Shown here piece after piece: positions 588 through 17,199 of a stretch of 17,199 nucleotides of DNA. The stretch's first letter is position 1; every line of letters starts with the position of its first letter. Below the pieces are notes generated by a model. That model saw only the letters and a list, made by a program, of their open reading frames with translations. It was not told where the DNA came from and made no database searches. The position numbers and the translations under genes were made by a program. Source of the stretch: a virus (lineage: Duplodnaviria > Heunggongvirae > Uroviricota > Caudoviricetes); the IMG/VR virus record IMGVR_UViG_2563366937_000009; one strand, given 5' to 3'.

Positions 588-885
588 TATTATTTTTACC
601 TGTAGTGTAAAAAGATCGTTTCCCTCACAGTCGCTGACTTTCTTAAACAAACTTTAAAAATCAAATGACTATGGACTATTCCTACGATTCACCGTCCTCT
701 TTTCCCTACATAATGACGCGCTTATTCTCCAGGACACCTTTTGCTCTTTTATTAATGGGTGGATTTATTAGCAAGCATGTTCATTTATAGAGGATCTATT
801 TTTTAAAGTTATTTATTAAAGCTTTTTTCATTCTTCACTGGAGGGATCTGGCGACACTAAACGCTCACTTATCAGGAGATATCGT

Positions 886-1173: not shown

Positions 1174-1175
1174 TG

Positions 1176-1781: not shown

Positions 1782-1793
1782 TCAGAGGGGCCG

Positions 1794-2108
1794 ATGAAAC
1801 TCAGTATCGATTTTTGGGAAGTGATCTCCCTTATGCTTTCCTTCGTTGGATTAATGTTTGCTGCCGGAAAATTGCTGTTAGCGCAAATTGAAAAAAGACT
1901 TAATGAGCGTTTTGAATCTCTGGAAAACGCGCGCCGGGAATCAGAAACAAGCTGGTCGAAACTGGAAAGAGAATTTCTCGAATTTCGTGCCGAGCTTCCG
2001 CTGCATTATGTCCGCAGAGAAGATTATCTTCGTGGCCAGGCAGTATTAGAAGCAAAGCTGGATGCCTTATATAGCAAAATAGAGCTATTACAACGTGGCA
2101 GCTATTAA
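1794..2108 (+). CDS. membrane-anchored coiled-coil protein; possible i-spanin-like lysis accessory protein
   Basis: 104 aa with an N-terminal hydrophobic segment (ISLMLSFVGLMFAAGKLLLA) followed by a charged, helical region. GAGGGG RBS. It sits immediately after the endolysin. No embedded lipoprotein (o-spanin) ORF was seen. Confidence 0.4.
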   Translation: MKLSIDFWEVISLMLSFVGLMFAAGKLLLAQIEKRLNERFESLENARRESETSWSKLEREFLEFRAELPLHYVRREDYLRGQAVLEAKLDALYSKIELLQRGSY

Positions 2109-2113
2109 ATACA

Positions 2114-2146
2114 TCCCCACCTTTACATAAGTGTGGGGATTTTTTA
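2114..2146 (+). terminator. intrinsic terminator after the lysis cassette
   Basis: 7-bp stem TCCCCAC (2114-2120) pairs with GTGGGGA (2133-2139) around a 12-nt loop, followed by TTTTTTA. Confidence 0.6.
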
Positions 2147-2254
2147 TAGCCATTCAATTTTTTCTCTAAATCACATTAAAAGATTCTTCACCTTCACTGC
2201 TTCAGAATACATTTCAACGATAACGAAGTGAGCAGTAATTAAGGAACACCCTAT

Positions 2255-2710
2255 ATGGAAATTTTATCTGTAATTAATTCTGTTGTGACCAGATTACGTG
2301 AACAGAATCCCGAAATGGACGTATTTATTTCATCGGTTGATGCCAATAAATATATTCCGCAGACGCAGCAAGTTACAGTGATTATTAATTATAGCGGTTC
2401 TCTATTTGCCATGCCTGAAAGCAGTGATGCCCTCGTGCAACAGCAAACGCTCCGTTTAACTGCCACCGTTATTGTTGGCAAAAATTGTGACGCGTTAAAC
2501 GCACTGGATCGCATACGCAGCGCACTGGGGGGGATCCAGCTTCCTGATTGCGAGCGTCTTCTTTGGCTTGAAACAGAAATCAATGCAGGCAAGAGCGGTG
2601 GTTTCTGCCGCTACATCCTGGAAATGGCGACCAGATCGCTGTTTATCGCAAAACGGGAAAGCACGGACCTTACCCTGCTTACTGAAGTTAATTACGAGGA
2701 AACTGAATGA
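2255..2710 (+). CDS. conserved tail-module protein directly upstream of the sheath gene (Mu gp37-like position); function unknown
   Basis: 151-aa ORF with an AAGGAA RBS. Its stop overlaps the next start (ATGA at 2707-2710). Assignment is by position in the Mu gene order, not by a recognised motif. Confidence 0.45.
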   Translation: MEILSVINSVVTRLREQNPEMDVFISSVDANKYIPQTQQVTVIINYSGSLFAMPESSDALVQQQTLRLTATVIVGKNCDALNALDRIRSALGGIQLPDCERLLWLETEINAGKSGGFCRYILEMATRSLFIAKRESTDLTLLTEVNYEETE

Positions 2711-2904
2711 AATACATCTACAACGGCCCGGCAAGCGGCGTCACCCTTGCCGACGGACAAGAAATCTTATTGTGGCCGAACAGTGAAATTGATCTGCCAG
2801 AAGAAAACGAGTGGGTTATGACCATGATTGCCCGCAATCACCTGACTCCTGTCATCACTCAGGAAGAACAAAATAACGGAGAGGAAATTGTACATGGCAG
2901 CTAA
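2707..2904 (+). CDS. small tail-module protein (Mu gp38-like position)
   Basis: 65-aa acidic ORF, translationally coupled to the upstream gene and overlapping the sheath start. Confidence 0.4.
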   Translation: MKYIYNGPASGVTLADGQEILLWPNSEIDLPEENEWVMTMIARNHLTPVITQEEQNNGEEIVHGS

Positions 2905-4318
2905 TTACCTGCACGGTGTAGAAACCATTGAAATTGAAACCGGTCCGCGCCCGGTTAAAGCGGTAAAATCCGCTGTAATCGCTTTAATCGGTAGTGCACC
3001 ATGCGGTCCGGTAAACAAACCAACATTGTGCCTTTCTGAAAGCGATGCCGCGCAGTTTGGCTCGACTCAGGCTAACTTTACTATCCCGCAGGCGCTGAAG
3101 GCGATTTATGACCACGGCGCCGGTACGGTGGTGGTGATTAACGTACTGGATCCGGCAAAACATGGCTCCAGCATCAGCAATGAGAGTATCACTTTTGATT
3201 CCAACAACCAGGCAAAACTGGCTCATCGTGCGGTGCGCAATGTCGTCCTGAAACCCTCTTCAACATCAGCCACTACGTATAGCAGCGCAGCGTTTCATGT
3301 TGATGAACAAACAGGAATAATCACTCGTGCAGAAACTGAGATCCCTGCCGGAGCGAAAGTTTGCGCCTATTACTCATGGGCCGATCCAACAAAAGTTACC
3401 GCAGCCGATATTATTGGCGCCGTTAATACCGCAGGCGATCGCACGGGGATGAAACTGCTACAGGATACCTATAACCTGTATGGTTTCTACGCCAAAATCC
3501 TGCTTGCTCCCGTTTTCTGTACGCAAAAATCGGTCACCACCGAACTGATTGCTCAGGCGGAAAAACTCGGTGCTATCGCCTACATTGACGCCCCAATCGG
3601 TACTACATTCCAGCAGGTACTGGCTGGTCGCGGCTCGAAAGGCGCAATCAACTTCAACACCAGTTCTGACCGTGCGCGTTTGTGCTATCCGCACGTCAAA
3701 GTTTATGACGGCTCAACCAACCAGGAAGTTCTCGAACCGCTATCTTCACGCGCTGCCGGACTGCGTGCCAAAGTAGACCTGGAGAAAGGTTTCTGGTGGA
3801 GCAACTCAAACCAGGAAATTCAGGGCATTATCGGTATCGAACGTTCACTTTCCGCAATGGTTGATGACCCGCAAAGTGAAGTGAATCAGCTCAACGAAAA
3901 CGGCATTACCACTGTTTTCAATAGTTACGGCTCTGGTCTGCGTTTATGGGGCAACCGCACTGCGGCATGGCCAACCGTGACCCATATGCGTAACTTTGAA
4001 AACGTTCGCCGCACGGGTGATGTGATTAACGAGTCGATCCGTTATTTCAGCCAGCAGTATATCGATATGCCGATTAATCAGGCACTAATTGATGCCCTGA
4101 CCGAGTCGGTAAATACCTGGGGCCGTAAGCTGATTGCCGACGGCGCACTGCTTGGCTTTGAGTGCTGGTACGATCCGGCGCGAAATTCACCGACCGAACT
4201 CAGTGCCGGGCATTTATTGCTGAGCTATAAATTCACCCCGCCACCGCCGCTGGAACGTCTGACGTTTGAAACTGAAATTACCTCTGAATATTTAGTCTCT
4301 CTGGAGAGCAATAGCTAA
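2894..4318 (+). CDS. contractile tail sheath protein (P2 FI / Mu L-like)
   Basis: About 474 aa. Start placed at the ATG at 2894, which has a GGAGAGG RBS (the track start at 2888 is an alternative). The C-terminal YGSGLRLWGNRTAAWP segment is the sheath-family G-x-R-x-WG-x-RT signature. A tube gene follows immediately. Confidence 0.88.
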   Translation: MAANYLHGVETIEIETGPRPVKAVKSAVIALIGSAPCGPVNKPTLCLSESDAAQFGSTQANFTIPQALKAIYDHGAGTVVVINVLDPAKHGSSISNESITFDSNNQAKLAHRAVRNVVLKPSSTSATTYSSAAFHVDEQTGIITRAETEIPAGAKVCAYYSWADPTKVTAADIIGAVNTAGDRTGMKLLQDTYNLYGFYAKILLAPVFCTQKSVTTELIAQAEKLGAIAYIDAPIGTTFQQVLAGRGSKGAINFNTSSDRARLCYPHVKVYDGSTNQEVLEPLSSRAAGLRAKVDLEKGFWWSNSNQEIQGIIGIERSLSAMVDDPQSEVNQLNENGITTVFNSYGSGLRLWGNRTAAWPTVTHMRNFENVRRTGDVINESIRYFSQQYIDMPINQALIDALTESVNTWGRKLIADGALLGFECWYDPARNSPTELSAGHLLLSYKFTPPPPLERLTFETEITSEYLVSLESNS

Positions 4319-4842
4319 TGGCTGGAAAAATTCAAATTAACCGTATTACCAATGCCAATATTTATCTCGATGGTAATAACCTTTTAGGTCGTGCAACCGA
4401 AATTAAATTACCGGATGTCAGTTTAATTATGCAGGAGCATAAAGCACTGGGCATGGTCGGCAAAATCGAACTCCCGGCAGGTTTCGATAAACTGGAAGGG
4501 GAAATTAAATGGAACTCCTTTTATCAAGACGTCATGCGTAAAACGGCAAACCCGTGGCAGGCGGTAGCATTACAGTGCCGCTCCAGTATTGATTGCTATA
4601 ACTCCCAGGGGAAAGCGAATCAATTAGCGTTAGTCACTCATTTGACTGTTATGTTTAAAAAGAATCCATTGGGAACATTTAAACAGAATGAAAACCCGGA
4701 ATTCAGCAGCGCCTTTGGTTGTACCTATATTAAACAGGTGGTCGATGGTGAAACACTACTGGAACTGGATTACCTGGCGAATATTTTCCGCGTTAACGGC
4801 GTGGATCAATTAAGTACCTATCGCAATAACATCGGTGGCTAA
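4318..4842 (+). CDS. tail tube protein (P2 FII / Mu M-like)
   Basis: 174 aa. Start overlaps the sheath stop (TAATG). Size and position are as expected for the tube gene downstream of the sheath. Confidence 0.8.
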   Translation: MAGKIQINRITNANIYLDGNNLLGRATEIKLPDVSLIMQEHKALGMVGKIELPAGFDKLEGEIKWNSFYQDVMRKTANPWQAVALQCRSSIDCYNSQGKANQLALVTHLTVMFKKNPLGTFKQNENPEFSSAFGCTYIKQVVDGETLLELDYLANIFRVNGVDQLSTYRNNIGG

Positions 4843-4847
4843 GTTAT

Positions 4848-4868
4848 TCGGGGCTACGGCCCCGATTT
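4848..4868 (+). other. GC-rich stem-loop just downstream of the tube gene
   Basis: TCGGGGC (4848-4854) pairs with GCCCCGA (4859-4865) around a TACG loop, followed by TTTCC. It may act as a partial terminator or mRNA stabiliser. Confidence 0.35.
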
Positions 4869-4892
4869 CCGCATGACCAATAAGGATACAAA

Positions 4893-5210
4893 ATGAAAGA
4901 ACATTATACCTTACAGTTCCCGTTTACTTCAGCGGCGGGAGACGTAATTAACACTCTGCAATTACGTCGCCTGAAAGTAAAAGATATGCGCAACGCGCGC
5001 CGGATCAGCGAAAAACCAGAAGAATGGGATGAACCGCTAATGGCTGCAATGACCGGACTGGTGCCAGAAGATTTAGCTGAAATGGATTTGCTGGATTACC
5101 AGGCATTGCAGAAACGATTTCAATCCATGCTTAGCGTGGCTACAGAATCCGCCACTGTTATGGCAAGCGATGGCGTTACTGGCGAGATGGTTTCGCTTTC
5201 CGCCCAGTGA
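4893..5210 (+). CDS. tail assembly chaperone (P2 gpE / Mu gp41-like)
   Basis: 105-aa acidic protein between the tube and tape-measure genes, the conserved chaperone position. An overlapping +1-frame extension is open to 5298. Confidence 0.65.
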   Translation: MKEHYTLQFPFTSAAGDVINTLQLRRLKVKDMRNARRISEKPEEWDEPLMAAMTGLVPEDLAEMDLLDYQALQKRFQSMLSVATESATVMASDGVTGEMVSLSAQ

Positions 5211-5399
5211 GATAGACGCCCTTACCGTCGATGACTTTAGCAACTGGCTGGATGAAGCCAACGCCCAAATAAAAATCGAATATGACTCGCAGACCTGATG
5301 TCTGCGAGTTTCCCAAGCCCGTCAGGTTTATTTCTTCCCTGCCCTTTTTTTTAGAAAAATAACCAGCGGGCCATTATCAATATTTAAAGAGAAACAATT

Positions 5400-7760
5400 T
5401 TGGCCAACGATATTATTACCCAGCTTCAGGCGCGTAATGAGACGTTGACGCAGGCAATAGCCCGTTACGGCTCACTCAACGCCAGAACATTGTTAACTCT
5501 CTCTACTCAGCAAGCGACAGTTATCAAACTAACGCAGCGACTTGCCGATTCCGCTCTCCGCCTGGAGGAAAATAGCCGCAGCCGCGCTAATCTGATGGAG
5601 AAAACCCAAACATTTGCCGGGCAATTTAGCAAAGTATTCAATGTTGAAGCCCCCGACTGGAAGTTGCCGTATGAGTTTCAGGACAATATGGTCAATATGG
5701 CGACCAAAGGTGGGATGAGTGATGCCACTCGCGAGACGCTCAGCCTTAATCTGCGCGACTGGAGTATGGATTTTAACCAGCAGCAGACCACGTTACAGTC
5801 CGCCGCTCTGACCTTAGTTGAAGGCAACATATCGTCCTTGCAGGATCTCAACCGCTATATGCCGGAGATCGCCAAAGCCGCCACCGCCACGCGCGACAGC
5901 GCCGAAACATGGGCGAAAGCCGCGCTCGCGACTCATGATCGACTGAATATTGCCCCGGAAAATTTCCACGCTGCGCAAAACATGATGTACAGCGTTACCA
6001 AAAGCGGTGGGCCTGCCATTGCCGAACAAACGCAGTGGATAGAGAAATTTGCAGGTAAAACCGGCGCTCAGGGTCTGGAAGGTATGGCTGAACTGACCGC
6101 CACCATGCAGATCGCCATGAAAAACGGTGCCAGCGCCAGTGCAGCGGCGGAGAATTTCGACCATTTTCTACAAACCACATTTTCGAAAAAAACCGATAAC
6201 TGGTTCGCCAGCCAGGGCGTCGATCTGCAAGGTTCTCTGCTGGAGCATCAGCAAAACGGTATGGGTGTTAGCGAAGCTATGACTCATATCGTGCAAATGC
6301 AGCTTGAGAAGATGAATCCGGCGATCCTCGATACCTTCAAACGCACCATGCAGATTGAAGATTTATCTGCCCGCAGCAATGCGCTGCAATCGATGGTGAC
6401 GCAGTTTAATCTGGGCGAAATGTTCGGCGATGCGCAAACGGTGGAATTCCTGGCCCCTATGCTGGCGAACATGGAAGAGTATCGCCAGCTAAAAGCCTCT
6501 GCCATGCAAGCCACCAGCAAGAATCTGATTGATGCCGACTTTTCTGCGCAAATGGCTTCGCCCATTGAACAGACTAAAGCGTTACAACTGGCGTTAAATG
6601 ATTTATGGCTCAGCATTGGCTTGCAGCTTATGCCGGCGATTGGCGAGCTGGCGCAAAGCCTTGCGCCGGTTATTCGCCAGTTCAGCGCCTGGCTACGCGA
6701 ACACCCGGCACTAGTGCAAAACATTGCGAAAATCGTCGGGGCGATTTGGCTGTTTAACGGTGCGCTGAATGTTTTAAAGCTGGGCGCGAACTTCATCGCC
6801 TCGCCGTTTATTCGTCTGGTCGATATCTTCCTGAAAGTCAGGGCAAGTCTGGCGCTCGGAGGCGCAGCGAGTAAGGTGCTATCGGCGGTTAAGTCATTGG
6901 GTGGCGGCGCAAAATGGCTAACGCAACTGCTTGGTCGTGGCCTGAGCGGAGCATTGAAACTGGTTGGTCGGACCGTTCTCTCACTAGGCCGGGTGCTACT
7001 GATGAATCCCATTGGTCTGGTCATCACTGCGATTGCGGGCGCGGCTTATCTGATTTATCGCAACTGGGAACCTATCACCAGGTTCTTTTCCGCCATCTGG
7101 AAACGTATTACCACGGCCTTTGACGGTGGCATTGCAGGTATTAGCCGGTTGATTCTCGACTGGTCGCCACTGGGGCTGTTCTACAGCGCCTTTTCCGGTG
7201 TGATGAATTGGTTTGGTGTTGAGATGCCTGCGAGTTTTAGCGAGTTCGGCAGCAATATACTGGGTAGCCTGGCCGACGGCATAATGAATGCTTTCCCCGC
7301 TCTGAAAGGCATTATTGATCAGGTCAAAAACGCCATGCCAGACTGGCTAAAAGCCACAATGGGGATCGGCACAGAAGCATCGGCTGCGACTGTTACAGGC
7401 ACGACTAATACCGCATCAGTCTCCCCCGCGACCGTTGTTCCAGGCGTTGCCGGTGCGCTTTTAACGCCGCCTGTGGGCAAACAACTCGCGCCATCCAGCA
7501 AAACGACAACGCCGTCATCGGCGCCAGTGGCAAAACCCGCGTCGGCCTCTTTACCAAGTAAATCCGTAACCAAACCGGCGACGCTACCCTCCCGTTCCCC
7601 AGGAAAAGTCCAGGTGAATTTTTCGCCACAAATTACCGTGCAGGGTAACGGACAAAACACCACTAAAGACATTCAGAACGTGTTGACGATGAGTAAACGC
7701 GAACTGGAAAGAATGATTAACGACGTAATGGCGCAGCAACAGCGCCGGGGGTATGCCTGA
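5400..7760 (+). CDS. tail tape measure protein
   Basis: 786 aa. Apparent TTG start at 5400, with an in-frame stop at 5385-5387 and AAGAGA upstream. Long helical N-terminal region, hydrophobic Gly/Ala/Leu-rich central region and a Pro/Ser/Thr/Ala/Lys-rich C-terminal linker. Sits at the canonical position after the chaperone. Confidence 0.85.
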   Translation: MANDIITQLQARNETLTQAIARYGSLNARTLLTLSTQQATVIKLTQRLADSALRLEENSRSRANLMEKTQTFAGQFSKVFNVEAPDWKLPYEFQDNMVNMATKGGMSDATRETLSLNLRDWSMDFNQQQTTLQSAALTLVEGNISSLQDLNRYMPEIAKAATATRDSAETWAKAALATHDRLNIAPENFHAAQNMMYSVTKSGGPAIAEQTQWIEKFAGKTGAQGLEGMAELTATMQIAMKNGASASAAAENFDHFLQTTFSKKTDNWFASQGVDLQGSLLEHQQNGMGVSEAMTHIVQMQLEKMNPAILDTFKRTMQIEDLSARSNALQSMVTQFNLGEMFGDAQTVEFLAPMLANMEEYRQLKASAMQATSKNLIDADFSAQMASPIEQTKALQLALNDLWLSIGLQLMPAIGELAQSLAPVIRQFSAWLREHPALVQNIAKIVGAIWLFNGALNVLKLGANFIASPFIRLVDIFLKVRASLALGGAASKVLSAVKSLGGGAKWLTQLLGRGLSGALKLVGRTVLSLGRVLLMNPIGLVITAIAGAAYLIYRNWEPITRFFSAIWKRITTAFDGGIAGISRLILDWSPLGLFYSAFSGVMNWFGVEMPASFSEFGSNILGSLADGIMNAFPALKGIIDQVKNAMPDWLKATMGIGTEASAATVTGTTNTASVSPATVVPGVAGALLTPPVGKQLAPSSKTTTPSSAPVAKPASASLPSKSVTKPATLPSRSPGKVQVNFSPQITVQGNGQNTTKDIQNVLTMSKRELERMINDVMAQQQRRGYA

Positions 7761-8713
7761 TGTATGCCGTTTTAGGAGAGATTGAATTTAAGGTTGTCAC
7801 ATTCTGGGACGGCTTTAAAAGCACAATGGGCGTGGATTACGCCACACATGCCCGTATTGAAGGCAAACCTGGCGTGCAGTTTATTGGCGATAAGCTGGAC
7901 ATGCTGGCGCTGGAATTTTCCCTGCACAGCCAGTTTTGCCAACCCACAACAGAGCTGAATCGACTGCGTGAAGCCATGCTTGCCCACAAAGCAATGGCGC
8001 TGGTGTTTGGCAACGGTGATTATCGCGGCTGGTTTGTAATTACAGAGTTAACCGCCACTCACCAGCACACCGATCCCTGGGGCAATGTCATTGCCCAAAG
8101 CGGAACAATGTCGCTCCAGGAGTATACCGGCGATCCGAAAAACCCACTCCTGCCCCCGGCGATTACCACCCAGGAGCCTAATATTGACGAAAAGGCGAGC
8201 GATTTTCCGGACAAGGTGGAGTCCTGGTTGGATCAGATATTGAACGCCATTGAAGAAGGTATGCGCAAAGCCAAAGAGATGATCGATGAACTGGCGCAAT
8301 CCATTGAAGATATTAAAAAAACAGTGGCAAAGGTTAAAGCACTGATTAAAGAGGCCAAAGCGTTAAAAGAAAAGTGTGAAAAGATAATTACGTCGTTGAA
8401 AAAGACTATCGATGCCATCGAAACCCTGTTTAAACAGCCGATGGATCTGCAAACGCTGGCAGGATTACCAAAAGCGTTGTCGGCGCAGATTAAAGCATTG
8501 CTGGGTAGCCTGCCGGGTATCCGCGACTGCGCCAAAGACGCCGGGACACTGGTTGACCATGCACAAGAACTGTTTGGCAGCATCACCAGCGCCATCGCCG
8601 AAGCAACTTTCGATAAAGCCACAACGTTGGTTGAGCAGGCGCGTACAACGGTACAGCAAACCACTCCCGCAGTGACTCAGCTCGCTGCCGCGACCATTAC
8701 GAGGAGCTGGTAA
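7760..8713 (+). CDS. gpU-like tail protein (Mu DNA-circularisation protein N-terminal-domain type) with a C-terminal coiled-coil extension
   Basis: 317 aa. Start overlaps the tape-measure stop (TGATG). The N-terminal ~150 aa has the P2 gpU / Mu N pattern by eye. Residues ~165-230 are Lys/Glu-rich heptad-like (KAKEMIDELAQSIEDIKKTVAKVKALIKEAKALKEKCEKII). Confidence 0.55.
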   Translation: MYAVLGEIEFKVVTFWDGFKSTMGVDYATHARIEGKPGVQFIGDKLDMLALEFSLHSQFCQPTTELNRLREAMLAHKAMALVFGNGDYRGWFVITELTATHQHTDPWGNVIAQSGTMSLQEYTGDPKNPLLPPAITTQEPNIDEKASDFPDKVESWLDQILNAIEEGMRKAKEMIDELAQSIEDIKKTVAKVKALIKEAKALKEKCEKIITSLKKTIDAIETLFKQPMDLQTLAGLPKALSAQIKALLGSLPGIRDCAKDAGTLVDHAQELFGSITSAIAEATFDKATTLVEQARTTVQQTTPAVTQLAAATITRSW

Positions 8714-8922
8714 TGCGATACCTTGAACATATCACCACCGACGGCGAACGCTGGGATAACCTGGCATGGCATTACTACGGTGATGCACTGGCTTATGAAC
8801 GCATTATCGCCGCCAATCCACATGTCGCCATTTATCCGGTACTGCCTGCCGGTATTCAGCTCATTATTCCGGTCATTACCGTCAACAAGACCGTATCGGA
8901 GATCCCACCATGGCTGAGATAA
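8713..8922 (+). CDS. tail protein X (P2 gpX-like, LysM-like)
   Basis: 69 aa. TAATG overlap with the upstream gene. The conserved position between the gpU-like and gpD-like genes matches the phiCTX/R-pyocin order U-X-D. Confidence 0.65.
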   Translation: MRYLEHITTDGERWDNLAWHYYGDALAYERIIAANPHVAIYPVLPAGIQLIIPVITVNKTVSEIPPWLR

Positions 8923-9950
8923 GCGTAACTGGCGGCGTCTTTGCCACGCTCGCGCCCATTTTTACCCTCTGGTATGGGCATAAAGATATCACTTATGACA
9001 TCACGCCTTATGTCACCAGCATCAGTTACCAGGACAGTATTAAAAACGAGTCGGATACCATCGCGATTACACTGGATGACACCGATGGACGCTGGATAAA
9101 AGAGTGGTATCCCGGCAAAGGCGATACGCTGGCGCTGCACATAGGTTATCAGGGGGAAAAACTGCTCGATTGTGGTCAATATATCATTGATAAAATTGAC
9201 ATTTCAGCACCACCTTCCACGGTAAATATTGATGGCATCGCCACTTCCGTCAATCAGGCGCTGCGCACCCGTAACAGTCAGGGCTTTGAAGAGACAACGC
9301 TTTCAGCCATCGCCAGCCGTATCGCGCAAACTCACGGCCTGACGCTGGTGGGCAAAATCGAGCCGCTGACGATTGACCGGGTGACACAGTACGGCGAAAC
9401 CGATGTCGGATTTCTCAAGCGCCTGGCCAGCGAATATGGCTATGCGGTAAAGGTGACCACCAAAGAACTGATTTTTTCGCATTTACCCACGCTGCGCTGC
9501 CTGGCGCCGGTGAAAAAGATCGACCGCAAAGACGTTTCGCATTTCACCTTCAAAGATACCATTAACCGCATCTACAAAAACGCCACCGTACAGCATCAAA
9601 ATAGTAAGAAAAAAGAACTGGTTATCTACACTCACGACAGCCAGCAAAAGCCGTCTGCCCGTGGAGTCGGCACCAGTGCCGACACGCTGAAACTGAACAG
9701 TCGGGCGCCGGACGTTGGCGCGGCGCAGGCAAAGGCCAACGCCGCGCTCGACAGCCACAACGAATATCAACAAACCGGAACGCTCAGGATGATGGGCTGC
9801 CCGGAACTGACGGCAGGCAATAAAATCGAGCTAACCGATTTTGGTGTACTTTCCGGTCAGTGGCTGATTGATAAATCGACTCACAGTTTTGTGCGCAGCG
9901 GCTATATCACTGAAATCGACATTTCACGCGGGCCAGCAACCAGCCAGTAA
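8910..9950 (+). CDS. late control gene D-type tail/baseplate hub protein (P2 gpD / Mu P-like)
   Basis: 346 aa. Overlaps the X-like gene by 13 nt. Size and position fit the gpD family. Confidence 0.8.
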   Translation: MAEISVTGGVFATLAPIFTLWYGHKDITYDITPYVTSISYQDSIKNESDTIAITLDDTDGRWIKEWYPGKGDTLALHIGYQGEKLLDCGQYIIDKIDISAPPSTVNIDGIATSVNQALRTRNSQGFEETTLSAIASRIAQTHGLTLVGKIEPLTIDRVTQYGETDVGFLKRLASEYGYAVKVTTKELIFSHLPTLRCLAPVKKIDRKDVSHFTFKDTINRIYKNATVQHQNSKKKELVIYTHDSQQKPSARGVGTSADTLKLNSRAPDVGAAQAKANAALDSHNEYQQTGTLRMMGCPELTAGNKIELTDFGVLSGQWLIDKSTHSFVRSGYITEIDISRGPATSQ

Positions 9951-9959
9951 GGAGGCAAT

Positions 9960-10661
9960 ATGAAAGGAGTAACCCGGCAAACGGGGATTATCAGCGATAT
10001 TGACGAAACCAGCGTTCGGGTGCGGGTCACGCTACCAGAGTGTGACAATCTGAAGAGTAACTGGCTTGCGGTGCTGCAGCGCAATTCTCAGGACAATAAG
10101 GATTACTGGCTACCGGATATGGGCGAACAGGTGGAAGTTCTGCTGGATGATAACGGTGAAGATGGCGTGGTGCTGGGCGCAGTATATTCAACGGTAGACA
10201 CTGCGCCAGTAGCATCGCGCGACAAACGCTATGTCCAGTTTTCTGATGGCGCAGCGTTTGAATATGACCGCAGCACCCACCAGCTTACGATTAATGGTGG
10301 CATCGAAAAAATCGTGATTGAGGTTATTGACCGTACCAGCCTGACATCGCCCAACGTTGAGGTTAAAGCCCAACACGTCACCGTGACTTCCGACACTGTT
10401 GATGTGAAAGCCACCGATGTCAGCATTGAAGCCAGTAAGGTCGATGTTAAAGCGGCAGCAGTGACGGTAGATGCGCCCATGAGCACCTTTACCGGCAACG
10501 TCACGGTGATGAAAAAACTCACCTGGCTTGGTGGCATGGCAGGAAGTGGAGGCATCGGCAACGCCGCCACGATAACCGGCAATGTCAACGTGATTGGTAA
10601 CGTTCAGGCCAGCGGCACATTGCAGGACAGCGGTGGCAACTCCAACCACCATTCACACTGA
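9960..10661 (+). CDS. baseplate spike protein (P2 gpV / Mu gp45-like)
   Basis: 233 aa with a strong AGGAGG RBS. N-terminal domain (GIISDIDETSVRVRVTLPECDNLKSNWLAVLQ) followed by a repetitive beta-strand-like C-terminus (VTVTSDTVDVKATDVSIEASKVDVKAAAVTVDA) typical of spike needles. Confidence 0.8.
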   Translation: MKGVTRQTGIISDIDETSVRVRVTLPECDNLKSNWLAVLQRNSQDNKDYWLPDMGEQVEVLLDDNGEDGVVLGAVYSTVDTAPVASRDKRYVQFSDGAAFEYDRSTHQLTINGGIEKIVIEVIDRTSLTSPNVEVKAQHVTVTSDTVDVKATDVSIEASKVDVKAAAVTVDAPMSTFTGNVTVMKKLTWLGGMAGSGGIGNAATITGNVNVIGNVQASGTLQDSGGNSNHHSH

Positions 10662-10666
10662 CGTTT

Positions 10667-10696
10667 AACCCGCCTGATGGCGGGTTTTCTCTTTTT
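10667..10696 (+). terminator. intrinsic terminator-like hairpin inside the tail operon, between the V-like and W-like genes
   Basis: AACCCGCC (10667-10674) pairs with GGCGGGTT (10679-10686) around a TGAT loop, followed by TTCTCTTTTT. Confidence 0.5.
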
Positions 10697-10759
10697 AATC
10701 AATCAGTTTTCTAAATCGCTTTAATATCCCCGCCGCCTGTTCAGGGCGAAAATACCCTC

Positions 10760-11119
10760 ATGAACACGAAAACACGCCCCTCTACGCTGCACTGGCAACC
10801 CGCCTTGCAGCGGCCTGAAGAATACGTCTGCGGACTGGATGATATTCACCAGGCAATACACATCATTCTGCGCACACCGCGCGGCAGTGATCCCCACAGA
10901 CCGCTGTTTGGCAGCAACTTGTGGCACTACATCGATTATCCCATCGAGCGGGCGATCCCGCATGTGGTAAGGGAGTCGGTAGAGGCCATCCGCCAGTGGG
11001 AACCGCGCTGCCGGTTGCTGAAGGTGACACCGGTAATCGACGGGGAACATCTGACGTTACGTGTGCAATGGCGCGCCGCTGACGGCGTAATCAACTCAAC
11101 GGAGGTGTTATGGCGATAG
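10760..11119 (+). CDS. baseplate wedge protein, GPW/gp25 family
   Basis: 119 aa. The pattern (HQAIHIILRTPRGSDPHRPLFGSNLWHYIDYP...EAIRQWEPRCRLLKV) fits the gp25/GPW family. Confidence 0.85.
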   Translation: MNTKTRPSTLHWQPALQRPEEYVCGLDDIHQAIHIILRTPRGSDPHRPLFGSNLWHYIDYPIERAIPHVVRESVEAIRQWEPRCRLLKVTPVIDGEHLTLRVQWRAADGVINSTEVLWR

Positions 11120-12225
11120 CCGAACCCGATTTTATTGACCGCGATCCTGCGCAAATTACCAGCGAGATGATTGCGCAGTACGAAGATGCCAGCGGCAAAA
11201 AGCTCTACCCGGCACAGGCCGAGCGGTTGCTGATTGACCTTTTTGCCTATCGTGAAAACCTTGTACGCATCGCCATTCAGGAAGTGGCGAAACAGAATCT
11301 GGTCGCGTATTCCCGCGCGCCAATGCTGGATTATTTAGGTGAGCTGGTGGGCGTTCACCGCTTACCTGCACAACCGGCAAAAACCACGTTGCAGTTTTCG
11401 GTAGCCAGTAAGAATCGAAATAACATTCTAATTCCACAAGGAACACGTGCCAGCGCCTCTGACAGCGTGATGTTTGCTACCGATGAAGATGTTCTGATTC
11501 CGGCGGGAAGTTTGCATATAGCCGTTCCCGCCACCAGTCTGGCAACAGGCGAAGCGGGCAATGGCTGGCAGCCTGCACAGATTAGCGCCCTTGTTGACAG
11601 GATTGGTTATTACGATATCAGCGTGACCAACCTGACGGCCTCAACCGGCGGCTGCGGTGAAGAGAGCGATGACGCACTACGCCAGCGGATCCAACTGGCG
11701 CCGGAAAGTTTCAGCAATGCGGGCAGCTATGGTGCCTACCGCTTTCATACGCTTTCCGTAAGCCAGTCGATTATTGACGTCGCGGTACTGGGGCCGGACG
11801 AAGGATTGCCAGAAGGCTGCGTGGAGATCTACCCGCTAACGCTGAATGGTCTGCCGGGCGTGGAACTGCTCGCGCAAATTGAACTGGAGGTTAGCAAGGA
11901 GAAAAAACGTCCGCTGACCGACAAAGTAAGTGCGAAATGCGCCGTTAGGGTGCCGTATGAAATCCGTGCGCAGCTCACACTGTTTACCACTGCCGATCAG
12001 GAGACAACGCTGGCTGCGGCGCGTAAAGCGATTAGCCTCTGGACGCAACAGCGGCAGAAACATCTGGGACAGGACATTGTGCCAAACCAGATAATCAAAG
12101 TGTTACAAGTCGATGGTGTCTATGACGTTGCGCTGAATATGCCTACAAAACGTATTTTGCAGGCGCATGAGTGGGCGGAATGCACCGCGATAGACGTCAC
12201 GATTGCCGGAGTCAGCGATGGATAA
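11110..12225 (+). CDS. baseplate J-like protein (P2 gpJ / Mu gp47-like)
   Basis: 371 aa. Overlaps the W-like gene by 10 nt. Size and position fit the Baseplate_J family. Confidence 0.85.
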   Translation: MAIAEPDFIDRDPAQITSEMIAQYEDASGKKLYPAQAERLLIDLFAYRENLVRIAIQEVAKQNLVAYSRAPMLDYLGELVGVHRLPAQPAKTTLQFSVASKNRNNILIPQGTRASASDSVMFATDEDVLIPAGSLHIAVPATSLATGEAGNGWQPAQISALVDRIGYYDISVTNLTASTGGCGEESDDALRQRIQLAPESFSNAGSYGAYRFHTLSVSQSIIDVAVLGPDEGLPEGCVEIYPLTLNGLPGVELLAQIELEVSKEKKRPLTDKVSAKCAVRVPYEIRAQLTLFTTADQETTLAAARKAISLWTQQRQKHLGQDIVPNQIIKVLQVDGVYDVALNMPTKRILQAHEWAECTAIDVTIAGVSDG

Positions 12226-12934
12226 ATTGCTGCCGCCACCGCCGCTTGCCAGCGATGAGCGTTTTTCAACTCTGGCAAATATCGCCACCGAGCGTTTTGC
12301 CCAACTCGATCTGACAGCGTTGATGGTTTATCTGGTAGACCTGGTTGATGCTTCGGCATTACCTGCCCTTGCAGAACAATTTCACGTTCAGGGGCTGGAA
12401 GGTTGGTTATTTACCACTGATGAACGGGAGAAGCGCGAGTTAATTAAGCAAGCCATTGAGCTGCATAAATATAAAGGAACGATTTGGGCGGTACGGCGGG
12501 TGCTGGAAATACTTTCGCTACCAGGAACTATTTCAGAATGGTTTGAATATGGGGGGAAGGCTTATTTTTTTAAGGTTGATATTACACTAGAGGAAAAAGG
12601 ATTAAATGAAGATGAATTTAATGCACTTATCGCATTAATTCACGAATATAAAAATGTTCGTTCAAAACTTGAAAGCATTACCATCTGGCTTATTAACCAA
12701 AGTCAAATGCCAGTTATTGGCAGCGCAATCCAGGGTGGGGAGGTTATTACTGTATTACCCCCTATTGCGGAGAGTATTTGGCAGTCATCGACACTATTTT
12801 TAGCGACAGGTTACTGTGTTGAGGAATACATAAATCTCTTTCCGTATCAACCTGATCGCATTACACAATCCCAACCGATTCATGTCGGCACAGGATACTG
12901 GAGTACCGAAATTATGTCTGTATACCCGGAGTAA
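12203..12934 (+). CDS. tail protein I (P2 gpI / Mu gp48-like)
   Basis: 243 aa. Overlaps the J-like gene by 23 nt. The N-terminal LLPPPPLA motif region and position fit gpI. The C-terminal half is markedly AT-richer than the upstream genes. Confidence 0.7.
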   Translation: MPESAMDKLLPPPPLASDERFSTLANIATERFAQLDLTALMVYLVDLVDASALPALAEQFHVQGLEGWLFTTDEREKRELIKQAIELHKYKGTIWAVRRVLEILSLPGTISEWFEYGGKAYFFKVDITLEEKGLNEDEFNALIALIHEYKNVRSKLESITIWLINQSQMPVIGSAIQGGEVITVLPPIAESIWQSSTLFLATGYCVEEYINLFPYQPDRITQSQPIHVGTGYWSTEIMSVYPE

Positions 12935-12936
12935 GT

Positions 12937-14433
12937 ATGGCAAGTGAATTTTTTACAATATTAACCACCGCAGGCAAATCAAAAATTGCCTCTGCGCTGG
13001 CGGAGCAAAAACAGATCCGCCTACAAACTATGGTGGTCGGCGATGGCAATGGTCATTATGTCGAGCCGACAGAAAGTCAAACCAAAGTTGTGCATGAAGT
13101 CTGGCGTGGGCAACTAAATACCTTAAAAATTGCGCCTGATAATCCAGCCTGGGTTATCGCAGAGACGATTATTCCTGAACAAGTAGGTGGCTGGTACGTC
13201 CGCGAGGTTGGGCTACTGGATGCTGACGGCACACTAGTTGCTATTGGCAAATTTCCGGAAACCTATAAACCGCTATTACCTGCAGGTGCCAGTAAGCAAA
13301 TTGTTATTCGCGCAGTTATGGAAGTGACCAATGCTGACGCGGTGACGCTTTTGATCGACCCTTCAGTCGTTATAGCAACCAGAGAATATGTCGATGAAAC
13401 GCTGAAAGAACATCAACAATCACGGAATCATCCTGATGCGACGCTGACGCAGAAAGGTTTTACGCTGCTGAGTAATGCGACCAATAGCGATGATGAAACC
13501 AAAGCGGCCACGCCAAAAGCGGTAAAAGCGGCATATGACCTGGCAAATAGTAAAGCCGCCACTAGTCATACTCATGCCTGGAATCAGATTAATGGTATCC
13601 CTGACGGTACGCTGACGCAGAAAGGGATCGTTAAACTTAACAACACGACAAATAGCCCCAGTACGGCGGAAGCTGCAACGCCAAGTGCGGTTAAGGCGGT
13701 GTATGACCTGGCAAATAGTAAAGCCGCCACTAGTCATACTCATGCCTGGAATCAGATTACTGGTATCCCTGACGGTACGCTGACGCAGAAAGGGATCGTT
13801 AAACTTAACAACACGACAAATAGCGCCAGTACGACGGAAGCTGCAACGCCAAGTGCGGTTAAGGCGGTGTATGACCTTGCTAATGGCAAGGCTTCGGCAA
13901 GTCATACGCACGCATGGGAGCAGATTACCAACATTCCCGACGCAACTCTTGGTAAGAAAGGAATTGTTCAGCTAAGCAGTATCGTCCCTAGTACCAGTAC
14001 AACAGAAGCAGCAACGCCATACTCAGTTAAGGTTGCCTATGACCTTGCGAACACTAAAGCTCCGGCAAGCCATGCTCATCCATGGAATCAAATTACTGGT
14101 ATCCCGGACGGTACGCTGACGCAAAAAGGGATTGTGAAGCTTAATAACACAACAAACAGCACCAGTACGACAGAGGCAGCGACACCCAGTGCGGTGAAGG
14201 CAGCAATGGACAAAGCAAATACAGCGTTGAATAACACCACTGCATCTATATCAGATGTCAGACTAGGTGCTAAATTTGATCAGGTTATGGCAAAAGGGGG
14301 GCGCTATGAATTCTCTGGTAATGTTCTGACTGGGTTGAGAATTATCGGAGAAGTAGATGGAGATGATCTCGCTATATTTCGCCCACTTCAGATAAAGGTT
14401 AGAAATTCTTGGTATACGGTAGGGCAACTTTAA
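12937..14433 (+). CDS. tail fibre protein with conserved N-terminal baseplate-attachment domain, a tandem-repeat shaft and an AT-rich C-terminal tip
   Basis: 498 aa. The N-terminal ~150 aa resemble the P2 gpH / Mu S N-terminus. Five ~56-aa repeats follow (T-L-T-Q-K-G-I-V-K-L-N-N-T-T-N-S...A-A-T-P-S-A-V-K-A-V-Y-D-L-A-N-S-K-A...S-H-T-H-A-W-N-Q-I-T-G-I-P-D-G). The C-terminus has a divergent composition. Confidence 0.85.
   Translation: MASEFFTILTTAGKSKIASALAEQKQIRLQTMVVGDGNGHYVEPTESQTKVVHEVWRGQLNTLKIAPDNPAWVIAETIIPEQVGGWYVREVGLLDADGTLVAIGKFPETYKPLLPAGASKQIVIRAVMEVTNADAVTLLIDPSVVIATREYVDETLKEHQQSRNHPDATLTQKGFTLLSNATNSDDETKAATPKAVKAAYDLANSKAATSHTHAWNQINGIPDGTLTQKGIVKLNNTTNSPSTAEAATPSAVKAVYDLANSKAATSHTHAWNQITGIPDGTLTQKGIVKLNNTTNSASTTEAATPSAVKAVYDLANGKASASHTHAWEQITNIPDATLGKKGIVQLSSIVPSTSTTEAATPYSVKVAYDLANTKAPASHAHPWNQITGIPDGTLTQKGIVKLNNTTNSTSTTEAATPSAVKAAMDKANTALNNTTASISDVRLGAKFDQVMAKGGRYEFSGNVLTGLRIIGEVDGDDLAIFRPLQIKVRNSWYTVGQL
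13441..14280 (+). repeat. in-frame tandem repeat of 168 bp, about five copies, inside the tail fibre gene
   Basis: Copies start at 13441, 13609, 13777, 13945 and 14113. Copies 2 and 3 are nearly identical at the DNA level; copies 4 and 5 are more diverged. Confidence 0.85.
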
Positions 14434-15086
14434 TGGAATATAAAAATTTTACACTCTATAAACCAACAGAAAGTATTGGTGGTATTTTTTATCTAAAATC
14501 TGCTGACGATGTTGATTGGTACGAGGCACAAAAAAACTTTTCTACCGAAACGTTAAAAATTGCTTATGATAGCACAGGTAGAATTTGCATTGCGGATACT
14601 GATGCCTCAGCGATTTGGCCAATAAATTTATCTATCAGTGAGATCTCATCTGAGAATGTTCCTGATGATTTTTCAACAAATGGGAAATGGCTCTGGAATG
14701 GCGAAAGTATAATCAGCTCTGTAACAATCGTAACCGCTAAAAAAAATAAAGTAGAGGATATCAAAAATCAACGCGACACCATCACAACCGATTACATCAT
14801 CATCAACAACCATCACTTCCACAGTGATACAAATAGCCGTATCCAACAGCTTTCACTCACTAAAATGGGAGCGGAGAAAAAAATCCTTCCAGGTTTAATG
14901 TGGAAAACTAAAAATAACGGTCTGATTGAGTTAACCAACGAAATCGCTGCCCAGTTTGAATCGGTAACAATAGATCACGATATGCGCCTGTTCGCCAACG
15001 CCCAGCGTCATATCGCGGCGGTGGAAGCTCTGGACGATATTCAGGCAGTGCTCGACTACGATTACTCCACAGGCTGGCAACCATGA
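14433..15086 (+). CDS. tail fibre assembly protein (chaperone; P2 gpG / Mu U-like)
   Basis: Start placed at the ATG overlapping the fibre stop (TAATG at 14431-14435); the track ORF starts upstream at 14409. AT-rich variable N-terminal part and a conserved C-terminal tail (RLFANAQRHIAAVEALDDIQAVLDYDYSTGWQP). Confidence 0.75.
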   Translation: MEYKNFTLYKPTESIGGIFYLKSADDVDWYEAQKNFSTETLKIAYDSTGRICIADTDASAIWPINLSISEISSENVPDDFSTNGKWLWNGESIISSVTIVTAKKNKVEDIKNQRDTITTDYIIINNHHFHSDTNSRIQQLSLTKMGAEKKILPGLMWKTKNNGLIELTNEIAAQFESVTIDHDMRLFANAQRHIAAVEALDDIQAVLDYDYSTGWQP

Positions 15087-15538
15087 GTAAAACCACTGTC
15101 TGGCTCGCTTGTTATAAGGGCCGAACAGAGCACCGTGGTATTGCCCGACTGGCTGACTGGCTTACCCGTAAAATCACACGCGGTAGTTATTCCCACTGTG
15201 AATTAGCCGTTAAGCATGGTGAAAAGAGTTACCTTTGTTACTCTGCATCACTGCGCGATCGCGGTGTACGCGGAAAGATAATGCCGTTACCTGCGGATAA
15301 GTGGGATCTATTGCCGCTCCAGGCCAGCCTTCAGGATGTGGAAACTTTTTTCCGTAAACATGATGGCAAACGCTATGACTGGCGCGGAGCCTTAGGAATT
15401 ATCACCGGCAATAAAGAACAGTGCGATCGCCTGTTTTGCAGTGAATTTTGTGCTGAATTTCTGCAATTAAAAGACAGCTGGCGATACTCACCCAATCACC
15501 TGTATGCCTTAGTAAGTAGCTGGCAATCCCATCCGTAA
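15083..15538 (+). CDS. hypothetical 151-aa protein, translationally coupled to the fibre assembly gene; possible permuted papain-fold (NlpC/P60-superfamily, YaeF/YiiX/LRAT-like) enzyme
   Basis: ATGA stop/start overlap with the upstream gene. A His-containing motif (GSYSHCELAV) lies N-terminal to a Cys-Ser-Glu motif (LFCSEFCAEFL), the order seen in permuted papain-fold enzymes. No signal peptide. The family assignment is from pattern memory only. Confidence 0.35.
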   Translation: MSKTTVWLACYKGRTEHRGIARLADWLTRKITRGSYSHCELAVKHGEKSYLCYSASLRDRGVRGKIMPLPADKWDLLPLQASLQDVETFFRKHDGKRYDWRGALGIITGNKEQCDRLFCSEFCAEFLQLKDSWRYSPNHLYALVSSWQSHP

Positions 15539-15543
15539 ATCAC

Positions 15544-15570
15544 ACCGGGCACAATGCCCGGTTCCTTATA
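15544..15570 (+). terminator. putative terminator at the end of the tail operon
   Basis: ACCGGGC (15544-15550) pairs with GCCCGGT (15556-15562) around an ACAAT loop, followed by TCCTTATAT. The T-run is weak. Confidence 0.4.
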
Positions 15571-16047
15571 TACTCTAAATAGCTTATATGGACACCTCCC
15601 CGATGCAAGCACGGTCAGACAGAGAAAATGGTCTCTGCGCCTTACTCCGAAAGGGCTGACCGAAAATGGAGAGCTATTCCGCTTGGCTATTTAGAATTAG
15701 GCTATAACATATTTATAAAAAATATTATTCCAAACAAAACATTCATGTGAAGAATAAAAATAAATTTTTAAAAATAAATATATTGCGTTATAAATCACTT
15801 CAAATATAGTTTGTCCTTTTGGTACCCTCATAGACGATGCGAGGAAACAGCGTGTTTACTGCCTCACTCCTCTGGAAAAGTAAGGTTATCACTAATAAAA
15901 ATGAGTCAGATAACACGTTGCCGCTGGCACGCCACAAAGATAGAGGCTTAAGTAGGATAACATTCACATACTATGCATATACACTGATTCCTCATTTGCT
16001 TATAAAAATTCAATAAAGCAAGGTAACAATAGAAAGGATAGTACGTC

Positions 16048-17199
16048 ATGGTTGATAAAATAATTTTCACTGTTACGCCAATTTTTTCCATTCCTCCACG
16101 TTGCGCTGCTGCTGTAGAGACCTGGATTTATCAGGTTGCTAAGATGACAAGAATACCGAATAGAATTGTTTGTATAAAAGAAGAAGGTTATTCTGATATC
16201 ACTACTGTCAGTGAACGATGCTCAATTCATCGCATCGGATTCGGTCGAATTTATAAACGCATATTTCAGAAATTGACGCGTATAGACCCCCTGCCTTATT
16301 CTCAACGAATTTTGAATGTCGCTAACGATTTCAATATTACGGATAACAGTGTAATCGTTGTACATAATAGCATGAAATTATATAGCCAGATTCGTGAGCG
16401 TTCACCTCATGCAAAAATAGTGATGCATATGCATAACGCTTATGAGCCAAAAGGAATGGATGCTAATGTCAAAATGCTCGTCCCCAGTAACTATTTAAAA
16501 GACTATTATCAGGGTTTTCTTCCTGATGCAGATATCGCTATAGTTCCAAATGGAACAGATCCATATAATACGGATAAGCACTGTGCCAAAATCAACAGAT
16601 CTGAACTGAACATACCCTCTGACAAGAAGATTATATTTTATGCGGGAAGAATATCTCCTGAAAAAGGATTGATGTTACTTTTACAAGCGTTTGAACTACT
16701 CATCAGAACCCGTGATGATATAGAGCTGGTTGTTATCGGAGATTATGCGAGCAAAAGTAAGGGTGAAAAAGGAATTTACCAACAGAAAATTCGAGAATTA
16801 GCAAAGCAACTAGGTTCACACTGCCATATGTTAGGAGGTGTCGCTCCTGAGGAAATGCATCGTTATTATTGTTTGGCTGATTTAGTTGTTATTCCATCTC
16901 AATTTCAGGAGCCATTTTGTATGGTGGCAATAGAAGCTATGAGTGCAGGTAAACCTGTACTGGTGAGTACTCGAGGTGGAATGATAGAATTTGTAAAAGA
17001 TAAAGATACTGGCTATCACCTGCAAGAGCTGATGACCCCCAAAACGATTGCTGTGGATATAGAAAAAACACTTAACAATCCTGATTTACTTAGTATTGCC
17101 CATCACGGAAAACAATTTGTCCTGGAAAATTATTTATGGTGGCAAGTTACTCACAAGTTTGAAACTGTAATTAGCAATTGGTTTGATTGTTCCAATTAA
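16048..17199 (+). CDS. GT4-type (GT-B fold, retaining) glycosyltransferase; likely lipopolysaccharide or surface-polysaccharide glycosyltransferase
   Basis: 383 aa with an AAGGA RBS. The C-terminal domain carries an E-x7-E motif (EPFCMVAIE, 16908-16934) followed by AMSAGKPVLVSTRGGMIEFV. The gene is markedly AT-richer than the tail genes and is complete (stop at 17197-17199). Confidence 0.8.
   Translation: MVDKIIFTVTPIFSIPPRCAAAVETWIYQVAKMTRIPNRIVCIKEEGYSDITTVSERCSIHRIGFGRIYKRIFQKLTRIDPLPYSQRILNVANDFNITDNSVIVVHNSMKLYSQIRERSPHAKIVMHMHNAYEPKGMDANVKMLVPSNYLKDYYQGFLPDADIAIVPNGTDPYNTDKHCAKINRSELNIPSDKKIIFYAGRISPEKGLMLLLQAFELLIRTRDDIELVVIGDYASKSKGEKGIYQQKIRELAKQLGSHCHMLGGVAPEEMHRYYCLADLVVIPSQFQEPFCMVAIEAMSAGKPVLVSTRGGMIEFVKDKDTGYHLQELMTPKTIAVDIEKTLNNPDLLSIAHHGKQFVLENYLWWQVTHKFETVISNWFDCSN

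Follow-up and report, generated by a model that had tools for sequence, protein, structure and literature searches.

Locus and operon position

We analysed a stretch of 17,199 nucleotides (nt) from a tailed phage (Caudoviricetes; IMG/VR record IMGVR_UViG_2563366937_000009), hereafter called the window, and concentrated on a small gene at positions 15083-15538. The window carries a headless phage tail cluster, and this gene lies directly behind the genes for the tail fibre and its chaperone, the tail-fibre assembly protein (Tfa). Its product, 151 amino acids (aa) long, is a predicted circularly permuted papain-like cysteine enzyme. The features at this end of the cluster are as follows.

15083-15538, + strand: gene of the permuted NlpC/P60 (YiiX-like) cysteine enzyme, 151 aa, with an ATG start; ortholog of STM4198 and member of phrog_1128
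14433-15086, + strand: gene of the 217-aa Tfa, Caudo_TAP-like in its N-terminal half and DUF4376 in its C-terminal half (Pfam and PHROG)
15083-15086, + strand: ATGA start/stop overlap of the Tfa and enzyme genes (translational coupling), read from the sequence
15544-15562, + strand: GC-rich hairpin, then UUCCUUAUAU; probable end of the tail operon (fold -14.2 kcal/mol, z -3.97)
12937-14433, + strand: gene of the 498-aa tail fibre, which has an N-terminal collar of the P2 gpH type (PF12571, 9.2e-59) and five Phage_fiber_2 repeats (PF03406, 7.2e-81)

The start of the Tfa gene likewise overlaps the stop of the fibre gene (TAATG, 14431-14435). The 217-aa Tfa matched DUF4376 (5.3e-12) and, just below the cut-off, Caudo_TAP (2.7e-4). 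It was also matched by phrog_136, ‘tail fiber assembly protein’ (9.3e-30), and by further PHROGs of tail-fibre-assembly and tail families, and its N-terminal half resembles the Tfa proteins of P1, ESSI-2, and others. These domains, together with its place directly behind the fibre gene, identify the product of 14433-15086 as a Tfa.

The hairpin has a stem of 8 bp that starts 6 nt past the stop codon of the enzyme gene. Similarity to other copies of the element stops at 15561, and the GC content beyond this point drops to 0.34-0.40. A simple terminator scan did not call the hairpin at 15544-15562, because its T-run is too short, whereas direct folding did; a promoter scan found no + strand promoter for the enzyme gene. 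The ATGA overlap, the hairpin, and the GC drop indicate that the tail operon ends with the enzyme open reading frame (ORF), whose translation is coupled to that of the fibre-chaperone gene. An earlier reading made from the letters of the DNA alone (the sequence-only reading) had described a 151-aa, cytoplasmic-looking protein that is translationally coupled to the fibre chaperone and occupies the last place of the tail operon. Each of these points was confirmed: the coupling by the ATGA, the operon position by the hairpin, the end of homology at 15561, and the GC drop, and the cytoplasmic character by a protein in which no signal peptide or N-terminal extension is evident and the first strand begins at residue 6.

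Fold and active site of the enzyme

Profiles built from 62 and 150 homologs matched only two proteins of solved structure, BcPPNE of Bacillus cereus (BCE_A0238, YaeF/YiiX family; PDB 3kw0, E = 1.4e-4) and Escherichia coli YiiX (PDB 2if6, E = 0.014). Both matches aligned the three strongest motifs of the family, Y-S-H, G-K-x-Y-D, and F-C-S-E. An AlphaFold2 model (mean predicted local distance difference test score, 80.4; predicted template modelling score, 0.78) places His38 in a strand (residues 36-44) and Cys119 at the first residue of a helix (residues 119-126). Foldseek searches also returned 3kw0 from the PDB and, from viral models, uncharacterised phage proteins together with one ‘Permuted papain-like amidase, YaeF/YiiX, C92 family’. 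The hhalign comparison of the family alignment with a 100-residue YiiX fragment aligned only the YSH region (probability 17%) and is uninformative, because the template is a single sequence.

Xu et al. 2011 (PMC3142127) assign four catalytic residues to the active site of this enzyme group: a Cys, a His, a Glu that orients the His, and a signature Tyr. In YiiX these are His49, Glu64, Tyr115, and Cys128. Three of them have predicted counterparts in the window.

15194-15196, + strand: codon of His38, the predicted catalytic base, in motif Y-S-H-C-E; invariant; aligns with His49 of BcPPNE and YiiX
15374-15376, + strand: codon of Tyr98, the predicted NlpC/P60 signature tyrosine (oxyanion/P1 carbonyl), in motif G-K-x-Y-D; invariant; aligns with Tyr115 in GKPYDF of YiiX
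15437-15439, + strand: codon of Cys119, the predicted nucleophile, in motif F-C-S-E; invariant; aligns with Cys154 of BcPPNE and Cys128 of YiiX

Across 150 diverse homologs, H38, W74, Y98, and C119 are invariant (150/150), and S37, E40, S56, D59, G61, V62, R63, K65, D99, F118, S120, E121, and P137 are conserved in at least 88%, with S120 and E121 reaching at least 96%. Ser37 and Asp59 correspond to Ser48 and Asp68 of 3kw0, two residues in contact with a lysine bound at the S1’ site. The protein contains six cysteines, and no membrane anchor, amphipathic targeting segment, or export signal was found in it.

The protein therefore combines a papain-like alpha+beta core in which His precedes Cys with the Cys/His dyad and the signature tyrosine (the equivalent of papain Gln19). 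It lacks the triad's third polar residue and is not matched by PF05708. Nor is it a canonical NlpC/P60 peptidoglycan endopeptidase, a group in which Cys precedes His, the protein is exported or tail-embedded, and the NLPC_P60 hidden Markov model is matched. We assign the enzyme class and active site with high confidence: a circularly permuted papain-like cysteine enzyme of the NlpC/P60, YaeF/YiiX type. The His-then-Cys-Ser-Glu arrangement noticed in the sequence-only reading is thus real and conserved. The permuted papain fold that it proposed also agrees with the profile and model searches, which recovered papain-like relatives; in the profile matches, H38 and C119 align with the catalytic pair of 3kw0 and 2if6.

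Family, constraint, and annotation

The enzyme has 71 close homologs. An exhaustive profile search yielded at least 4,487 representatives at 50% identity (E ≤ 1e-3), of which 1,944 also pass E ≤ 1e-10. With few exceptions, they consist of a single domain, are 135-180 aa long, and match from within their first few residues. The family has the signature [YF]-S-H-[CV]-E ... S-S-S-x-R-D-G-G-V-R-x-K ... W-D ... G-x-x-Y-D ... F-C-S-E. Among enteric orthologs, the ratio of nonsynonymous to synonymous substitution rates (dN/dS) of the enzyme gene is 0.04-0.09, in line with the 0.00-0.24 of baseplate genes of the same element; the ORF is a real, constrained gene and not a chance ORF.

In public databases, the protein falls in phrog_1128 (E = 2e-57, residues 1-148), which is labelled ‘enoyl-CoA hydratase/carnithine racemase-like’ and categorised as ‘moron, auxiliary metabolic gene and host takeover’. 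The enoyl-CoA hydratase name recurs in several records of GenBank and RefSeq. A true enoyl-CoA hydratase or carnitine racemase, for which only these inherited names speak, is practically untenable. The enzyme has no match in Pfam (E up to 1) or NCBIfam, the fold search gives papain-like enzymes only, and fold and profiles together rule out a crotonase identity. When 62 homologs were scanned with Pfam (E up to 10), only chance-level matches such as zf-FCS appeared, with PF05708 absent, and no defence family of PADLOC-DB 2.0 matched the enzyme (E up to 1). Since the PF05708 model (Peptidase_C92) is not matched and the canonical triad Glu is missing, we file the family, on its sequence features, as a separate, uncurated sister of YaeF/YiiX proper rather than as a member of PF05708. 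The family is already present in databases (phrog_1128; ‘hypothetical’ or ‘enoyl-CoA hydratase’ records), without a curated Pfam or NCBIfam model. In the searchable literature, we found no description of its fold assignment or of its tight pairing with Tfa genes; publications retrieved for ‘enoyl-CoA hydratase’ with ‘tail fiber assembly’, DUF4376, and YiiX/YaeF gave background and nothing on the family, and a paper on Mannheimia phages had nothing on it either.

Two members, P0209 and P0172, bear C-terminal additions, an HExxH segment in one and, in another, a lipobox (LAGC) resembling a fused spanin-type lipoprotein gene. We rejected domain fusions as clues to function; the members extended at the N or C terminus look like gene-call run-ons or unrelated additions (sheath fragment, lipobox, HExxH).

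Pairing with tail-fibre assembly genes

We surveyed the genomic neighbourhood of the enzyme by a pattern scan with one genome per species, which gave 80 loci from Enterobacteriaceae, Pasteurellaceae, Neisseriaceae, and Moraxellaceae; with phage records added, the set comprised 85 loci, 76 of which have a usable upstream ORF. A same-strand ORF of ~110-260 aa ends at the enzyme start in 77 of the 85. The enzyme start overlaps the upstream stop at 62 of the 76 loci (by -4 nt in 24, -8 in 23, -11 in 10, and other lengths in 5) and lies within 14 nt of it at 8 more.

The upstream proteins are of the Tfa type, as indicated by matches to DUF4376 (40/76), Caudo_TAP (21/76), phrog_2837 (58/76), and several ‘tail fiber assembly’ PHROGs. 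By similarity of the N-terminal parts, 71 of them group in a single cluster, whereas the last 100 residues divide them into three classes of 40, 21, and 13. We had considered whether the enzyme is specific to DUF4376-type chaperones and rejected this, as DUF4376 occurs in only 40 of the 76 and the rest belong to two further C-terminal classes. The enzyme is therefore linked to Tfa genes generally.

The order of fibre, small protein, and enzyme recurs in the Mu-like phage SuMu, where the enzyme gene lies between Tfa and com/mom, as well as in Pasteurella phage Pm86, Moraxella phage Mcat7, and Pseudomonas phage pAN. Three distant metagenomic members show the same order; one of them is a P2-type cluster with the enzyme between the fibre genes and the sheath gene.

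In an uncultured Kingella metagenome-assembled genome (L045, 5506-6528), one ORF runs from the C-terminal end of a DUF4376 Tfa (…YDYSSGW) into the enzyme, which is either a natural Tfa-enzyme fusion or an assembly or frameshift artefact. In Phytobacter massiliensis (L010, 4256-6456), all that is left of the Tfa gene is its last ~26 nt, and 71 nt separate the end of the fibre gene from the enzyme gene; despite the loss of Tfa, the enzyme ORF has stayed intact and constrained.

Mosaic structure of the fibre end

Comparison of the window with other copies of the element delimited one conserved segment at the fibre end.

14764-15561 (or 14740-15561), + strand: block of conserved DNA that spans the DUF4376 half of Tfa, the enzyme gene, and the hairpin (blastn against the E. 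coli, Superficieibacter, and Phytobacter copies; composition profile)

Upstream of this block, the fibre tip and Tfa's N-terminal half (~14226-14740, GC 0.36) are unrelated at the DNA level to the E. coli and Superficieibacter copies, while the flanks of this exchanged cassette are 75-91% identical between the window and the same copies. From these limits of DNA similarity, the exchanged host-range cassette ends inside the Tfa gene, and thus the enzyme gene belongs to the stable backbone. The Tfa of Mu-type phages reportedly has a variable fibre-binding N-terminal domain and a conserved C-terminal domain, a layout that this mosaic pattern fits.

The fibre itself (12937-14433) contains five near-identical tandem Phage_fiber_2 repeats of ~45 aa each. 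In a sister contig with an identical enzyme (L096, 8023-9351), the fibre has 442 aa compared with 498 aa. The difference of 56 aa appears, by length only, consistent with the loss of about one repeat, as if fibre length varied by repeat number.

The tail cluster and its element

The window from 1 to 15561 is a headless Mu/P2-type tail cluster in which head and DNA-packaging genes are absent. Its genes are arranged in the following order.

Opposite strand: Mor activator
Then: holin, transglycosylase, membrane protein; gp37, sheath, tube
Then: tail assembly chaperone, tape measure; gpU-like, X, D, V, W, J, I; fibre, Tfa, enzyme

In assembly GCA_000398885.1, identified through an exact protein match, the enzyme gene is followed by a family-4 glycosyltransferase (GT4) gene, yjbD, rluF, pepE, yjbB, and metH. 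E. coli S10 carries the same element at the same site, between lysC and yjbD, and the genes of the Salmonella copy are cross-referenced to loci STM4198-STM4219 of strain LT2, in the defective prophage ‘Def4’ (STM4196-4219), where the enzyme ortholog is STM4198. Among 5,426 complete E. coli genomes, the enzyme gene is present at full length with 90-95% identity in 196, and the W-J baseplate genes of the element are present at that level of identity in 195. These counts make the enzyme gene a fixed component of the element rather than a sporadic insertion, and the co-occurrence with the tail cluster that the sequence-only reading had raised as a check is borne out. Every gene of the element appears intact and under constraint, and the element may thus form a functional tailocin-like particle. 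We found no report of its activity in the literature; the ‘tailocin’ paper on E. coli ST131 was set aside, as its subject is another prophage, which is P2-like.

Between the tail cluster and yjbD lies a variable low-GC cargo slot (window 15563-17199, GC 0.34-0.40). Here it holds a GT4 gene (16048-17199) that runs off the window and whose product also matches ‘GT4-conflict’ (PF20706, 2e-12), with no PADLOC match. Elsewhere the slot contains a nucleotidyltransferase and a slipin gene (E. coli S10) or a hexapeptide acetyltransferase and others (Salmonella). Salmonella Infantis SARB27 (L094, 10748-13583) carries the O-antigen glucosylation operon gtrABC (STM4204-4206) between baseplate genes V and W, where the window has only a 98-nt gap (10662-10759). 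The tail assembly chaperone gene (4893-5210, Phage_TAC_7 type, 105 aa) is separated from the tape measure gene by ~190 nt (5211-5400), the usual site of a programmed -1 frameshift product of the P2 E/E’ type.

Comparison with characterised relatives

The nearest solved protein, BcPPNE, shares only 20% identity with the enzyme. It is ~40 residues longer, and its Glu64 and Glu67 are replaced by Ser/Ala and Arg58, respectively. It is plasmid-borne in a Firmicute, outside any phage-tail context, and is proposed to be a lipo-amino-acid amidase. YiiX has a helical lipid tunnel with a bound fatty acid, and its Pfam family, PF05708, does not detect the window enzyme. The YiiX family is placed at the membrane, with many permuted members bearing lipoprotein signal peptides or membrane-targeting modules (Xu et al. 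2011, PMC3142127); the window enzyme lacks such modules.

Among the remote relatives, LnsA of Staphylococcus aureus, a component of lipoprotein N-acylation with N-acyltransferase function, is a YiiX-like permuted NlpC/P60 protein that needs a partner and moves a fatty acyl group to an amine. It thereby offers a precedent both for acyl-transfer chemistry and for the working of a two-gene pair. Unlike the window enzyme, LnsA is secreted, works with the membrane protein LnsB on lipoproteins, and is not phage-encoded, and the two have no detectable sequence similarity. The type VI secretion effectors Tox-Act1 and TseH are phospholipid-cleaving, whereas PLAAT and LRAT are phospholipases or acyltransferases of the same permuted group. 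These four form separate clades and act in the periplasm or at eukaryotic membranes; the two toxins come with immunity genes and a secretion-system context, neither of which is present at the enzyme locus. The vaccinia virus protein G6R is likewise a virus-encoded permuted NlpC/P60 protein and has a suggested role in particle maturation. This likeness is by description only, and G6R differs in belonging to a eukaryotic virus and in keeping all four canonical catalytic residues.

Proposed reaction and role

All characterised permuted relatives act on fatty-acyl linkages, and we therefore favour an active, late, cytoplasmic thiol acyl-hydrolase or acyl-transferase that is co-produced with Tfa and serves the fibre module as an accessory, instead of being cargo for defence or a toxin (probability about 0.5). 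By analogy with the family, Cys119, activated by His38, would attack an acyl carbonyl polarised by Tyr98 to form a thioester acyl-enzyme. This intermediate would be resolved either by water, as in a hydrolase or amidase, or by an amine or hydroxyl acceptor, as in an acyltransferase. Because Ser37 and Asp59 match the lysine-holding residues of the BcPPNE S1’ site, the leaving group or acceptor is probably an amine, and the acyl group, judged from the relatives, is probably fatty-acyl or similarly hydrophobic. The enzyme would be made late, from one mRNA with Tfa and by coupled translation. In the reading that we favour, it would act in the producing cell during fibre assembly, its target being either the complex of fibre and chaperone or some acylated molecule without which active particles are not made or released. 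That it is a fixed accessory of the fibre module, in many temperate phages and in this domesticated tail cluster, rather than cargo seems somewhat better than an even bet to us. We are doubtful that the fibre or Tfa itself is the substrate, and a dedicated catalytic partner of Tfa that modifies the fibre or chaperone covalently, for example by placing an acyl group on lysine, removing it, or trimming, appears unlikely.

Several observations weigh against this role. The third triad position, Glu64 in BcPPNE and YiiX, corresponds to residue 55 here, where 123 of 150 sequences have Ser and the other 27 have Ala. From its conservation and location, Glu40 is a plausible His-orienting substitute for the missing Glu; it is present in 148 of the 150, two residues past His38 on the same strand, and probably takes over the role of the orienting Glu of YiiX and BcPPNE. 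PPPDE1 and LRAT likewise do without the canonical third residue (Xu et al. 2011, PMC3142127). With regard to the pairing, the small upstream ORFs of the three most distant members have no Tfa annotation in PHROGs, so that the coupling is firmly documented only for relatives at ~37% identity or more. Stx phages encode full-length homologs of the window Tfa without the enzyme, and hence Tfa proteins in general do not need it. Conversely, the enzyme is kept in Phytobacter where the Tfa ORF is absent, and it stands alone in Ralstonia jumbo phages, on the strand opposite to its neighbours. The slot behind the fibre genes is, moreover, a known hot spot for phage accessory genes (P2 Z/fun, Mu mom), and adjacency to Tfa alone could therefore be hitch-hiking. 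Finally, our literature search found no experiments on family members: STM4198 occurs in gene-content lists only, and the genome and proteome paper on SuMu does not mention gp51, the enzyme of that phage.

Alternative roles

The accessory hot spot and the gaps in the pairing bear on moron cargo with a conflict role (a toxin, superinfection exclusion or receptor modification, or anti-defence) that rides beside the exchanged fibre cassette. The place behind the fibre genes is classical for morons, the gene is absent from many phages with related Tfa proteins and persists without Tfa in Phytobacter and stands alone in the Ralstonia phages, PHROG files it in the moron category, and the slot just downstream holds variable cargo. 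We nevertheless consider such a role quite unlikely. The gene has no PADLOC match, promoter of its own, intergenic gap, or cognate immunity or partner gene, and its start overlaps the Tfa stop; it is fixed in all E. coli copies of the element, and, unlike receptor-matched exclusion genes, it retains 40-50% identity between members from four bacterial families whose fibre tips vary. In addition, a product made only late would be unable to protect uninduced kin. The functional half of the sequence-only reading, which had seen operon-end cargo with a possible toxin, immunity, or anti-phage role, is not supported, while its fold class stood and its further suggestion of a tail-associated enzyme may hold: the gene lacks a PADLOC match and a partner, is fixed in the element, is coupled to Tfa across the four families, and in the P2-type cluster sits inside the tail operon.

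Late production would also suit an adjuvant of lysis or release. The enzyme would then be a phospholipase A of the cytoplasm, or an amidase with inner-membrane lipids or lipid- or nucleotide-linked wall precursors as targets; it would make the envelope weaker at the end of the cycle and promote particle release, and its link to the fibre genes would reflect late timing only. The permuted relatives Tox-Act1, TseH, and PLAAT are membrane-disrupting phospholipases, the enzyme is produced with late genes only, some distant members have a lysis-related next gene (GH108-like in L092) or the lipobox extension of P0172, and its being kept in a tailocin-like element is in line with a part in release. 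The cluster, however, already encodes a holin, a transglycosylase, and a membrane protein at its other end, 13 kb away; the codon-to-codon coupling is with Tfa at 62 of 76 loci and not with lysis genes, and the enzyme has no membrane anchor or amphipathic targeting segment. We regard this role as unlikely. Still more improbable is a particle-borne enzyme. It would bind the fibre or what is conserved in Tfa, exit the cell together with the particle, and have outer-membrane lipid or lipoprotein of the target as its substrate at adsorption or penetration. The Tfa of Mu-type phages is said to stay attached to the fibre tip, other phage fibres bear deacylating esterases, and both the co-conservation with the C-terminal half of Tfa and the one putative natural fusion (L045) would suit a particle-borne protein. 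Against this, six cysteines, a thiol nucleophile, and the lack of an export signal are typical of a cytoplasmic enzyme, and we found the enzyme in no virion proteome. Three unrelated C-terminal classes of Tfa precede it as well, so that a specific docking surface is not obvious.

Implications

Recognition of the protein as a YiiX-like thiol acyl-enzyme corrects the wrong public name of a very large family of proteins from phages and prophages. The pairing of Tfa and enzyme constitutes a conserved gene pair and raises the question of whether tail-fibre maturation includes a catalytic step. STM4198 in Salmonella and the E. coli element are genetically easy systems in which to test it. If the enzyme were a dedicated catalytic partner of Tfa, there would be an enzymatic step in tail-fibre maturation, a process currently thought to need non-catalytic chaperones only, and this step would be common to many temperate phages of Enterobacteriaceae, Pasteurellaceae, Neisseriaceae, and Moraxellaceae and to domesticated tail particles. 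An enzyme acting on the fibre module would be relevant to host-range cassettes and to the engineering of fibres and retargeted tailocins, in which fibre-chaperone pairs are swapped between chassis. Should it act on host lipids instead, it would represent a new late-phase phage function.

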